NCBI GenBank assembly: GCA_963693365.1
Contig: CAVNZM010000018.1
Location: 677,861-741,860 of the forward strand
Source: Amoebidium appalachense
Lineage: Eukaryota; Protista; Ichthyosporea
Direction of reading: 5' to 3'
Length of the DNA: 64,000 nt
This document shows positions 3,001-45,000 of this stretch, piece by piece; positions within the stretch are counted from its first letter, which is position 1, and each line of letters starts with the position of its first letter. The notes under the pieces were generated by a model. That model was given only the letters and a program-made list of their open reading frames with translations, searched no databases and was not told the DNA's origin. Position numbers and translations under genes: made by a program.

Positions 3001-6000
3001 CTCCCCTCCCCTATCTCTGTTTCTCACCTCCGTTCAGTCGTTCAGTCTATCTCCTCTATCCCCCCCCCCCCCCTCCCCCCCCCCCCCCCCCCTTTGTCAA
3101 CAACACATTTTACTCTCTCTCTCTTCCCTTAACCCTTAATAACCACACATGCCTACGTTATAACATGGAACCCCCCCTCACAGGTTCGAGTGTGGAACCG
3201 ATTGGATTGTTGTGACACAAGATTGAGGAACTTCCAGGTAAACCCCCCCCCCCCCCCCCCCCCCCCCCCCCCCCCCGCCCCCAAACCTTCCCTACCCCTT
3301 CAGATTTTGCAGTGCGCTTTTTTCTGTCTAATTTCCAAAACCCTCTCCCTCTCTCCCCGGTCACAAAGCATAATGTAGATGGTGTGGTCCCTATAGGATA
3401 CATTACTAATTTTATAAACCCGCTCACGTTTGTATGGAACGAGGCTCTAAATCTTTGCGAACTACAGGTCCTAGTGGATGGTGTGCTTCAGACCCCACGA
3501 TACTTCCCGGCGCCCGCTGCAGGGGGCTCCATCGACATAAATTTAGGGGGGGTGCTTGGCCAGGTGGTGAAAATTCAGAAGAGCACAGCCGTTCTGACAC
3601 TTTGCGAGGTGCAAATTGAAACAATCCAACCAGGTGGGCCTATACTGTAATTTTTCTCAGATATGTCGCATGGTGGAAATCGTTTACTTCTACATAATGC
3701 TTTCCCCCCTCAACTCGTGTCATGTGTTTGCTATTTGGTTGGTAGTTGGTTGGTATGGGACGTACCACCGGTTGGGTTATCTGAAGGCAGCATACGCAAG
3801 AGATGAAGTTTGTGTTTATCTGATTGATTTACTTCAATGTTTGATGGCCAAATCTTGGATAGCTCTGGGGGAGTGATTTTTGGGCATTGTGAATGCGTGT
3901 GTGGGGGAGGGGAGGGGGGAGGGTTTTGGGGTTTGCGGGGTTGGGGAAGGGGGGGGGGGGGGGGGGAGAGGGGGGGGGGGAGGGAGAGGGGGGGGGAGAG
4001 GGGGGGGGGGGTGGGAGAAGGGGGGGGGGGGGTGGGGGGTAATAGGGAATTTTTGGGAAAGGCAGTTCCTTTGTGTCCGGTTTCAGGCAATACTTTCAAC
4101 AGATCTCATCCCTCCCCCCCCCCCCCCCCCCCCCCCCCCCGGAACTGCCTTTCCCAAAATTCCATATACCCCCCCCCCCCCCCCCCCCAAAAAAAAAAAA
4201 AAAAAAAGAAAAAGAAAGGAAAAGAAAGGAAAAGAAAGAAAGAAAGAAAGAGAGAGAGAGAGAGAGAGAGAGAGAGAGAGAGAGAGAGTGTGTGTGTGTG
4301 TGTGTGTGTGTGTGTGTGTGTGTGTGTGTGTGTGTCTGTGGGGGGGGTGGGGGGAGGGGGGGGGGAAGGGAGAAGAAAAGAAAGAATAAAACGAACTACC
4401 AGAAGAAAGAAAGAAAAACAAGCATGATCCCTTTCGGCTCCCCTAAGACTTTCTCTTCACCCCTTGTCTCCGCCTACGGACTCACCAGCACATAATCACG
4501 ATTTTTTTCTCCAGGGCCGTTCCAGGGCCACCCAACATGTGAACCCACAAAGCGTATACCCGGTGATATCCAATACGCATTCGACACCGGGTGTGGGTGT
4601 CCCGTTGGCTTTTTCAATCAGAGCAACAATTGCGAGCTTAACGCAAACATAACAAGCCTGTGCGAAAGCGGAGATCCGTGCTCTACGGACCAGGTTTGTG
4701 TTGATGGACGGGGCAACAACATTACAGAGGATGGGTATATGTGTACCTGTAAAACCGGTCTCGATCAGAACGGCGATTGTGATGGTATGTATCTTGTGAT
4801 CGTTTCACAACAAACACAGCGTGGCATCACACCCATACCCACACACACACATATATACCCACACACACATACAAACACACACACACTCAGGAACACACTA
4901 CTTCACACACACTCACGCTTGCCAACGCACACATATCACTCCCATATACGCATGAATCAAGCCGTTGTTTGTTTCATTCACGTTCAGGATGGTCAATATT
5001 ATCACCCTGACTCAACATCTAGAGTATCCAAATCTTGTAGTGTTTTCTGTGTACCTGATTGGTTGATATGAAACCGTTGCCATGGTCACCGGTGTGTCGA
5101 CCAATAGCATGGCACTATTTCAGGTGCTTGTCTGAACATGCCCTGACCTCCCCTTCTTACCCCTTACCACTCATACTCTTTCTGGTCATTTCTTTTATGG
5201 GTTCTAATACGATCCCCCCCCCCCCCCCCCCCCCTCCCTCCCTCCCCCCCACCACCCACCCCCCCCCCCCCCCCCCCCCCCCCCCCCCCCCCCCCTTTAC
5301 CCCCCGACACACACACACACCTCCCAGCCCCGCCCCGCCTTCCCCCGTTTGCACCCCATACCAACCACCGCTCTCACCCCATCATTTCTTCCCCCGTCAC
5401 TTCCTATCTTCCTTCCTTTCTCCACCCACAATCATCCCCCCTTCCCCCCCCCCCCCCCCCCCCCCCCCCCCCCTCCCCGCCCCCCCCCCAAAAGGATGTT
5501 CTCTGCTCATGCGGCATACTGCGCGTGTTGCTAATGTGCAGTTTAAAATGTTTGCCCTTGCATTTGTCCTGCACAGTTTTTCTCATCCGTAAGTTGTGCT
5601 TCATACCATGTTCCACATTTTAACCCCTCCTCCCCTCCCCTCCGCCCCCTCCATCTCCCCCCCCCCCCCCCCTCCCCCACCCACCCCCCCACCGCCCACC
5701 TTACAGTTGGTACGCTTGGTGTTAAGCGCGTCACATCATATGGCACGGATGTCTGCCACACCTCTTACCGAATCCCAACGGTGGACGCAACGGGTGTTTC
5801 TGTTGGTCAGTGTCGTTTGCGGTGTCTCACTACAAGCACGTGCACCATCTTTACGTATAACGGCGCTACACAGACATGCTATGGGTATGCTAACTGCAAT
5901 ACTAGGATGGCGGGAGGCAGCGATTGGAATATCTACCAAGTCATTCGTAAGTGGCCCTTAATAACACCAATCTTCACATGTGTGTTTGTTTTACTTATAG

Positions 6001-42000: not shown

Positions 42001-45000
42001 ACACGCAAGAAACACACACACACATAATAATTTTCAACCCGGAACAAAAAACATATACGTTAAACTAACAACCCCTTTCCCCAGACACACCCTTGAGGAT
42101 GAACAGCACGTGCAAGAATGCCCAGGAGACCTGCACGGAGTCACAAGATCCTCGTGCGTGTGGCCAGCGTAAGTAGCCCTCACAGCAAAGCTGCTGTAGA
42201 TGCATGACCCTTGGATATTTCATGGTGTGCAAAGTTATGTTTATTCTTGAAGACTTGTGCTCATTTCTCTGTTCAATCCTGAATAGCCCCCCCCCCCCCC
42301 CCCCCCCCCCCTCCTCCATCTCCCCCCAAATGCTCCCTCTTTGAAAAATGGTGGTTTGCTTTTTCGTTCATTTACCACACTTGCATCCGCCACGCACACA
42401 TGCTTACATATGCACATCCTCAGCCGGTTCTGGACTCGACATCATGCTCAGCAACAACGCCACCATCCTGTGTGCTGTTGCAAACCGGGTGGCAACATAT
42501 GGCGGGCAGTCTATTCAGGGTTGCCGTACCAAGTGTGTGAACTATGCTGGCTGCACTTCTATCACCTACGTCAGCAAGGGGGTCAGTACGGGCACATGCT
42601 ATCTGCATAAGGACTGTGGAATTACCACCACTCCTCCTGACGGCTATACATCGTACAATCTCCTGGGTAATGACCAGATTCAAACCCTCCTTTATATACA
42701 CACATGCTTTTCTCTCGCTGATGTTCCTCCATCTCATTCATCCCTATTTCTTTGTAGATGTGCCCCCCCCCCCCCCCCCCCCCCCCCAGCATTGTTTTCG
42801 AAATGCTTATCCTTCTCAAGTAAGTTAAGAAGTGGCTTTTTTCCGCACAACCCCCCCCCCCCCCCCCCGTGCACCTTGTACCTATCTCTTAACTAGGCTA
42901 GCCACCCATACCATTTTGCTTCGCTATATGCACATGAGGAACAGGGGCGCACACTTGTAGTCGGGTTGCTGGCACTTTCCCAGTTTGCTTCACCAGTACT
43001 GCCCTGCTGTCACAGTGCAGCAGCACTGCGCTTTTACAGCTGAATTAGAACTTTCTTTATACCCTCACTCGACATCTAACCGGGCATAACCAATCTTCCG
43101 CACACTCGCACAAACCCTCGCACAAAGGACTCGTATTGTAATTTAATTTACTGCCTCAATCCTATACATTGCGCGGTTGCAATACCCATGTGCGTTGCTG
43201 ATGGCACCCACATACAGAAAGACTCTACTGTTGGTCCCCTAACATTTACACTCCACAACTCACATCTGCACATTTTTGAACAGACATGACCCCCCCGGTT
43301 ACGGACATCGAATTTGGCCCCAAGTCCATTGATGGCTACCGCTACCGTGGTTTCCTTGCCAAGTACTACACGCAAAGAACAAGCGGCACCAAGGTCTATG
43401 GTCCCTCAGATCTGCATTTTGCCAGGCTGGAACACACCGTGTACAAGACTGCCAGTCAACAGCCGCTAGAAGGTGTACTTAAGCCCCGTTTATTTCTTCT
43501 CAGAAGCAAATTGCGGCACACATTTTTATCATTATTTGCCTTTTTCTATTCCCGACCCGTGTTTTATGGGTCAGTGGGTGGTTAGCATGCACATTACAGG
43601 CCCAGCTTCGAACATGATGGTTCTCAGGTACATGTGTCTACAGAATCAGAGGTGTAGCCCTACCCAGAAATCTCCAACACATAAACCCAGTCACGTGTCC
43701 ACATACATGCGTGGCACGGTCAAAACACATGCACACGGTGGCGCTGTCACATAAACATCCGTCTATACTTTTTATGTCTACTAAAGCCGTGTCACACAAC
43801 AGGGCCCGTTGTGGGTGAGTTTTAACCTGTTAAATTATATAAGTAATTGGGATGTAAGCAGAGACACAGTGGTGCAGTGTGAAAACACCACAGACACACA
43901 CAACAACAAAACACGGAACGATCGGAGCAGTGTACACAACAGACATCAATGTTTAGACACGACTGAACTGAATTTATTCTGATCTTCGAATAAATACCTG
44001 AAATTCCTCTAAGTCCAATCCATACATGATTTCCGACCAGTCGGAAATCAGATCTATCTCTAATAGAAACCAATCACTAAGAACCAATTGCTTTCAGAGA
44101 GATCCGGTACGCGGAGACGCACACGATAGGACACAGACACTAGTTAAGGTCAACTTGTGTCATCATCAAGGAAGTTCTAACCTATGACATACTGCAAAGA
44201 CTCAGACATATCACACTTAACCTTGATGATTGGTTAAAGCCCGGCAACACATGAAAACTAAAGTAAATTAATGAAGTCTAAACACACATGCTATTCTAAG
44301 TGTAGCCTAAGTGTGTTACCGTCCAATGAACACGTATTAAGTAACACAAATCTACCTAACATATATTAGTAGAAAAGAAATACGATTATACACATGAAGA
44401 CAAAGAGAGAAAGAAAAGAAAATAAGGAAGGAGAAAGAGGAAGGAAAAGAGAGCACAGATCAACAAACAAGATAGCAATAGCATAACTATAACCAGAGAT
44501 ATTTATGTACACACGAACATGTACACGTCTCTCCCTGAGTGGGTGGATCCGTGTACACACATATAAATATTCTAATCGATATTACAATACATGATTAGAG
44601 CCGATACAACACGATTACAAGTATACAAGCATATCGGAGATAGATGCTTCATTTTACATAATAGGAGTGTGGCATATACACTAAGCATATGAACTGAAAC
44701 ATAACACAAACTGAGAAGATCTTACCATATGTAGATACTACGTATTACAACAATCCGTCTATACTTTTTATGTCTACTAAAGCCGTGTCACACAACAGGG
44801 CCCGTTGTGGGTGAGTTTGGCCAGACCATTGCAGCATATGACTGATGGATTCGTGTCACATTCAACCGCACCTACATTAAGCCTGTGGTCTTTGTCAGCC
44901 CTGTGACCAGCAACACCAGCACGCAGCCCCTACAGGCCGCCATTCGACAGGTTACGCCTACCGGCTTCATCGTTAGGTATGCCCTACTACCCCTTAGCAC

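Follow-up and report, generated by a model that had tools for sequence, protein, structure and literature searches.

Proteins built of repeats are usually pictured as strings of beads, each bead containing its own disulfides. A large gene of Amoebidium appalachense (contig CAVNZM010000018.1, assembly GCA_963693365.1; the window analysed is a stretch of 64,000 nucleotides) raises the question whether spare cysteines in the linkers between its 29 PAN domains join modules that lie far apart in the chain. We find that the four losses of these cysteines are mirror-symmetric about the central PAN domain, and propose that the array probably forms an intrachain hairpin with 12 disulfide rungs between its two types of linker, A and B, and with the central PAN domain at the tip. 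The mirror pattern is confirmed, on firmer grounds than were given at first; the structure is what we infer from it.

Exon structure of the array

The window consists of intron-rich eukaryotic DNA (about 50% G+C), whose introns contain CA, CT and poly-C tracts, and its + strand carries one large gene. Its exon model was rebuilt from splice sites and reading frames, and profiles built from the gene's own units were run over all six frames. The array is encoded by 56 exons, all bordered by AG...GT and spanning 5707..42666 (+), which when joined give 3,329 codons with no stop and 280 cysteines. The order of the units is P1-A1-...-A14-P15-B1-...-B14-P29, and the independent exon model thus reproduces the 29 PAN domains (P) with 14 A and 14 B linkers around P15 of the original prediction. 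The six-frame search detected 29 P (P27 in two pieces), 14 A and 14 B units, all with E<=2e-5, and nothing further in the window below E 0.03, which rules out missed or extra units in the DNA, including missed exons that would have broken the 14/14 count. All units listed below were found by profile; further evidence is given in brackets.

5707..5946, +, P1 (PAN_1 E 2.5e-6)
6372..6488, +, A1, 5 cysteines
6916..7158, +, P2
7603..7725, +, A2, 5 cysteines
8080..8319, +, P3
8707..8829, +, A3, 5 cysteines
9767..10000, +, P4
10677..10796, +, A4, 5 cysteines
11365..11595, +, P5
11901..12020, +, A5, 5 cysteines
12733..12984, +, P6
13380..13502, +, A6, 5 cysteines
14027..14287, +, P7
14716..14838, +, A7, 5 cysteines
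15674..15919, +, P8
16259..16384, +, A8, 5 cysteines
16948..17199, +, P9 (spliced contig)
17611..17733, +, A9, 4 cysteines; spare-cysteine site is GCA/Ala at 17727 (P9-A9 joint in spliced contig)
18034..18279, +, P10 (spliced contig)
18838..18960, +, A10, 5 cysteines (A10-P11 joint in spliced contig)
19454..19702, +, P11 (spliced contig)
20580..20705, +, A11, 5 cysteines (length agrees with contig offsets)
21145..21399, +, P12 (spliced contig)
21562..21933, +, A12 and P13 in one exon; A12 with 4 cysteines, spare-cysteine site is ACC/Thr at 21678 (spliced contig; model)
22452..22571, +, A13, 5 cysteines
23012..23266, +, P14
23736..23858, +, A14, 3 cysteines; EGF C1 and C3 lost, spare cysteine kept at 23852
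24178..24417, +, P15, central PAN domain, putative tip (spliced contig)
24701..24781, +, B1, 3 cysteines; spare cysteine at 24724 (P15-B1 joint in spliced contig)
25257..25502, +, P16 (spliced contig)
25970..26059, +, B2, 3 cysteines
26549..26782, +, P17 (covered by X13 contig)
27484..27567, +, B3, 2 cysteines; spare-cysteine site is TAT/Tyr at 27510
28925..29173, +, P18
29556..29636, +, B4, 3 cysteines
30111..30437, +, P19 and B5 in one exon; B5 with 3 cysteines (model)
31001..31246, +, P20
31641..31721, +, B6, 2 cysteines; spare-cysteine site is GGC/Gly at 31667
32087..32338, +, P21
33078..33167, +, B7, 3 cysteines
33824..34066, +, P22 (PAN_1 E 8.8e-6)
34308..34388, +, B8, 3 cysteines
34982..35230, +, P23
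35667..35750, +, B9, 3 cysteines
36243..36485, +, P24
36800..36886, +, B10, 3 cysteines
37572..37808, +, P25 (PAN_1 E 4e-5)
38227..38307, +, B11, 3 cysteines
38829..39053, +, P26
39580..39660, +, B12, 3 cysteines
40264..40397, +, P27, first exon
40745..40859, +, P27, second exon
41239..41316, +, B13, 3 cysteines
41533..41790, +, P28
42085..42168, +, B14, 3 cysteines
42424..42666, +, P29 (PAN_1 E 1.7e-6)

Each array exon is strictly one unit in phase 1-1, with three exceptions that are not mirrored: intron losses at 21562-21933 (A12+P13) and 30111-30437 (P19+B5), and an extra phase-0 intron in P27 (40264-40859). The intron between A3 and P4 holds a 15-base-pair tandem repeat (9170-9720, about 35 copies) that is open in several frames.

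Identity of the P, A and B units

All 29 P units contain six cysteines, as had been claimed (174/174 fixed), and all six are invariant in 28 aligned units. The Pfam cut-off for PAN_1 was passed by four of the seven PAN-bearing exons scanned, the other three falling below it, and a 28-row PAN profile matched factor XI, MIC4, SML-2 and MIC5. In AlphaFold2 models of A12P13 and P19B5 the PAN part (predicted local distance difference test, pLDDT, >85) adopts the PAN fold, a sheet around one helix; compared with Sarcocystis SML-2 (2yil), 71 residues were aligned (Z 8.9, root-mean-square deviation 2.5), while Foldseek with the PAN models returned no match at E<=0.001. By cysteine spacing, profile and fold, the P units are PAN/apple domains (PF00024 clan).

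A linkers carry five cysteines in 11 of 14 cases, four in A9 and A12, and three in A14. Cysteines C2 and C4 are kept in all 14 and C3 in 13, and no A linker has the C5 that follows C4 by two residues in a canonical six-cysteine EGF; the last cysteine lies 11-12 residues past C4, at the expected site of EGF C6. Over C1-C4 the A linkers match the gene's own intact EGF (hhalign probability 86, E 5e-6), matches to the solved EGFs of CD97/EMR2/NELL2 (E 0.05-0.6) and to Pfam EGF_3 (E 0.067) are weak, and the model places a beta-hairpin at 13-17/25-29 with low confidence. The A linker thus appears to be a partial EGF (C1-C3, C2-C4) without C5 and not a canonical member of the family; with C5 gone, C6 is orphaned and becomes the spare cysteine. 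A14 has lost EGF C1 and C3 together and kept its spare cysteine. The closest pair of A linkers is A3 (8707-8829) and A5 (11901-12020), which are 56% identical with cysteines excluded.

B linkers carry three cysteines in 12 of 14 cases and two in B3 and B6; C2 and C3, nine residues apart, are kept in 14/14, and only the first cysteine varies. No family could be assigned to them, Pfam gave no EGF match, and a comparison of the A and B profiles reached a probability of 3.5 over 13 columns. Mixed A/P and B/P alignments were misaligned and were dropped.

Splicing in a related strain

Although no run listed as containing the sequence is recorded as RNA, contigs of runs X9 and X13 (one shared sample) proved to be spliced; the X9 pieces are 88-98% alike to the window, indicating that their source is a related strain. 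A 4,294-nucleotide X9 contig contains P11, P12, A12P13, P15 and P16 at the predicted exon-length offsets (5/5 anchors) together with the joints A10-P11 and P15-B1; its length is enough to reach P23, and its listed pieces end at P16. A 4,794-nucleotide contig agrees with P9-A9-P10. The spliced contigs fit the exon model, and in the related strain the central part of the array (P9 to P16, tip included) is therefore transcribed, with its introns removed as predicted. Run X10, which has a bisulfite-converted appearance (C>T 298, G>A 360), was left out. Two intron stretches (19808-20559 and 27704-28070) show very high contig depth in all runs compared and are likely multicopy repeats or small mobile elements.

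Mirrored loss of spare cysteines

Reading the codons confirmed that the spare cysteine is missing only in A9 (GCA), A12 (ACC), B3 (TAT) and B6 (GGC), that is, in 2/14 A and 2/14 B linkers. Counting outward from P15, A12 faces B3 and A9 faces B6, and the recomputed chance of such a match is 1/91 for this register, as first calculated, and 2/91 for either full-length register. When antiparallel and parallel registers were compared, the mirror register alone gave 14 pairs with 12 bonds, 0 mismatches and none of the 24 spare cysteines free; the next best, the plain parallel register, left 4 cysteines free and had 4 mismatches. Under the mirror model all six cysteine losses in the array form three pairs, the remaining losses being those of C1 and C3 in A14, an EGF pair, and orphaned cysteines therefore appear to be purged in the array.

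The A9 and A12 linkers group at 91/80 (a branch that is not starred), and their loss may have been one old event that was then copied. The B3 and B6 linkers, whose codons differ from one for cysteine by different single-base changes, are sisters in 0% of 200 bootstrap trees, suggesting that these were two separate, later losses at exactly the orphaned sites. Sequencing error was rejected for A9 and A12, whose codons are 2-3 bases away from one for cysteine.

The spare cysteines might instead bond to a partner protein, to each other in a parallel register shifted by six (A9-B3, A12-B6) or to neighbouring units, or might stay unpaired. The offset register fits the losses, as had been cautioned from the start, and its arm correlation (see below) equals or exceeds that of the mirror (r 0.48-0.51), but by arithmetic it joins just 8 units and leaves 12 cysteines free. 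Local schemes fail because no cysteine is missing from the units next to A9, A12, B3 and B6; bonds of the last cysteine of A with C1 of the next A, or of C3 of B with the first cysteine of the next B, were rejected for this lack of covariation. Secreted proteins with many free thiols are normally held in the endoplasmic reticulum (ER), which argues against unpaired cysteines. Taken together, such pairings are improbable.

Equally improbable, in our estimate, is a parallel homodimer with like-to-like A-A and B-B bonds, in which a loss would call for no matching loss elsewhere and the mirror pattern and the equal counts would have arisen by chance. It has a precedent in teneurin, where EGF repeats 2 and 5 of eight have C3 replaced by an aromatic residue, leaving a cysteine for side-by-side dimers (PMC3278476). 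The A linkers are likewise EGFs one cysteine short that leave a cysteine, which in teneurin links chains, and their C5 position is often adjoined by or replaced by tryptophan or tyrosine; moreover, the period-3 kinship of A9 and A12 reduces the number of independent events. However, teneurin lacks C3 in 2/8 repeats and pairs like to like in parallel, whereas the A linkers keep C3 (13/14), lack C5 (14/14) and would find their partner in a different module on the returning arm. A homodimer of this kind would also reduce the 14/14 count and the 1/91 (at best 1/11) match to coincidence, and it leaves the switch of linker type at the central PAN domain unexplained.

Antiparallel pairing between chains, as a head-to-tail dimer with the P15 domains central or as an arm-swapped polymer matrix, predicts the same 14/14 count and the same mirrored losses as the hairpin, and the two are not separable from sequence. 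No clear transmembrane helix was seen in 57000-62000, and hence no membrane anchor that would speak against a secreted antiparallel dimer. The short distances from the cysteines of A14 and B1 to the end strands of P15, on the other hand, permit closure within one chain, which should be faster than finding a second chain; we consider pairing between chains unlikely, though less so than the two preceding alternatives.

Evidence weighing against the proposed fold-back

Several results weigh against a hairpin. The mirrored events number only two, come from one allele and were recognised post hoc. With 26 columns and 0 starred branches the tree of the B linkers is not resolved, and the independence of the B3 and B6 losses is therefore weak; if B3 and B6 are copies from one period-3 duplication, the chance of the match rises to 1/11. 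The linker parts of both structural models have low confidence (pLDDT 51-70). A co-fold of A10 with B5, run without alignments and without folded controls (score 0.02, mark 0.34), speaks neither for the hairpin nor against it. The junctions of A1-A8 and B2-B14, including B-arm splicing past P17, are predicted from DNA, and an in-frame TGA at 44843, downstream of the array, makes the C-terminal context of the allele unsure. Charge complementarity across the rungs was absent (rho -0.15, p 0.6), and mirror PAN domains resemble each other about as much as PAN domains paired otherwise across the arms do (21.6% vs 20.6%).

When cysteines are left out, the similarity matrix of one arm is correlated with that of the other if the arms are aligned as mirror images (r 0.48, permutation p ~0.001), whereas parallel alignment gives no correlation (r -0.09). 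Among 28 circular registers, however, the mirror comes between 2nd and 5th place, with a parallel offset equal or higher, and the linkers alone give r 0.03-0.12 (rank 11-14). The correlation is thus not register-specific and shows no more than a greater uniformity in the tip-side half of each arm. Two more uniform blocks, P9-P14 (16948-23266) and P16-P22 (25257-34066), flank the tip, as if the arms had grown recently near it.

Finally, the protein and metagenome searches yielded no orthologue or paralogue in which covariation could be tested, and the covariation therefore rests on one allele. Word-index searches (proteins <=2,000 amino acids) with A12P13, the 28-row PAN alignment and the C-terminal domain were blank, an all-length search with P19B5 gave 8 weak matches (best E 4.9e-6) in which inspection by eye revealed neither A nor B linkers, and none of 83 pattern matches in metagenome contigs was confirmed. 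Atlas matches were to generic PAN clusters (<0.9) and, for A10, uninformative.

In sum, the antiparallel A-B pairing put forward originally gains from being the sole register without a free spare cysteine, from the paired loss of C1 and C3 in A14 and from the apparently separate B losses; its structural part is still one that we infer from two mirrored events in a single allele.

A proposed disulfide ladder

On balance we favour a single chain that makes a covalent two-stranded ladder. Each of the 14 EGFs would obtain its missing cysteine from a different module of the returning arm, at a distance along the chain of up to about 3,000 residues. The chain would be secreted and P15 would fold first. 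The first and last strands of a PAN domain lie side by side, so that the A14 cysteine (6 residues before the first strand of P15) could meet the B1 cysteine (9 residues after its last strand), closing the tip. Each following B linker, B(k), would then zip backward onto its mirror, A(15-k), while the B arm is being made; the B linker would close its C2-C3 loop, and its first cysteine would replace the EGF C5 missing in A, giving one disulfide per rung at 12 of 14 rungs. The A+B pairs would serve as the units of a spine from which PAN domains project, two at each node and a single one at the tip. The predicted product is a stiff extracellular rod about 15 units long that would show 29 likely glycan- or protein-binding PAN domains, with both chain ends and the lectin-like domains at its base. 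Its composition points to a putative multivalent adhesin or wall/matrix protein. If the ladder exists, as seems somewhat more probable than otherwise, both arms were extended in step and each loss of a cysteine was followed by loss of its mirror partner.

Regions flanking the array

The same gene extends to both sides of the array, and the full chain, lectin included, probably exceeds 5,000 residues by estimate.

907..1118, +, F-type-lectin-like (F5/8 type C) exon 1 of 3, phase-1 acceptor (PF22633 E 1.4e-8, PF00754 E 1.2e-6)
3184..3237, +, F-type-lectin-like exon 2 (splice sites)
3468..3633, +, F-type-lectin-like exon 3 (splice sites)
4515..4784, +, exon with 10 cysteines ending in a full six-cysteine EGF, closely upstream of the array (Pfam EGF E 0.003, below cut-off)
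43284..43472, +, cysteine-free exon after the array, phase 1-1, without convincing family (exon analysis, Pfam)
44799..44977, +, H-type-lectin-like exon with in-frame TGA 44843-44845 (PF09458 E 0.007-0.011, below cut-off)
45191..60461, +, likely remainder of the gene, exon chain part-built: unassigned exons, EGF/EGF_CA domains, SdrD_B-like domain, Thr/Gly/Ala-rich tract

The phase-1 acceptor of the first lectin exon places the start of the gene further upstream, and no signal peptide was seen in the gene, whose start lies upstream of 907. F-type lectin motifs are HX24RXDX4(R/K) for fucose and h2DGx for the cation (PMC5712786). The triad H...RxDx4R is present, with a His-to-Arg spacing of 27 against 24 in the published motif, and the cation motif occurs as AVDGN in the first lectin exon. 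The gene resembles F-type lectin mosaics in its N-terminal F5/8-type-C domain with the H...RxDx4R triad and the cation motif, and differs from them in this spacing and in that the lectin is a small part of the chain.

Downstream, no splice route bypassing the TGA at 44843-44845 was found. A 66-base-pair direct duplication (43757-43822 and 44753-44818), which includes the acceptor and the start of the H-type-lectin-like exon, flanks a 930-base-pair AT-rich insert (37% G+C). The TGA may be a nonsense allele, an assembly error or a site of readthrough. Together with the duplication, which likewise lies just past the array, it means that this allele could stop at that point or have been wrongly assembled; no break occurs within the array. 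Near 50331 there is what we take to be a vWD-like start motif (without a Pfam hit), and a late exon (58300-58375, +) has two basic clusters, RRRR and RRSRR, which resemble furin-type cleavage sites. Directly past the last recognisable exon lie pieces of a Copia-like retroelement (61800-64000, -; RVT_2 E 2.6e-22, SH3_retrovirus, integrase).

Relation to known systems

PAN tandems and EGF repeats with orphan cysteines were known before. Known tandem PAN proteins have about 2-11 directly linked apple domains. Such proteins (Toxoplasma MIC4, Eimeria MIC5, Sarcocystis SML-2, factor XI and prekallikrein) share the six-cysteine fold with the domains described here (Z 8.9-8.0, at 8-16% identity to solved PAN domains), but in this gene the 29 PAN domains are separated by linkers of two types, with the change from one to the other at the centre and with mirrored spare cysteines. 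PAN domains are adhesion modules and serve in the adhesion of parasites (PMC2575384). Full-text literature searches, covering listings and the openings of abstracts in a collection without most subscription journals, brought up no account of a PAN or EGF array that is mirrored and disulfide-zipped. One chain running out and back around a central tip domain is familiar from SMC coiled coils and the CdiA hairpin. Their contacts are non-covalent, through a coiled coil or beta-helix, whereas here a registered disulfide ladder would join two kinds of cysteine-rich linker.

If true, this would be an extracellular repeat protein shaped by long-range, position-matched disulfides and readable from its cysteine pattern alone, and it would provide a rule by which ladders of this kind could be recognised in further giant secreted proteins. 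It would also be a small model case of how the ER brings 24 similar thiols into register, and pose an evolutionary puzzle, that of two arms duplicating in mirror step.

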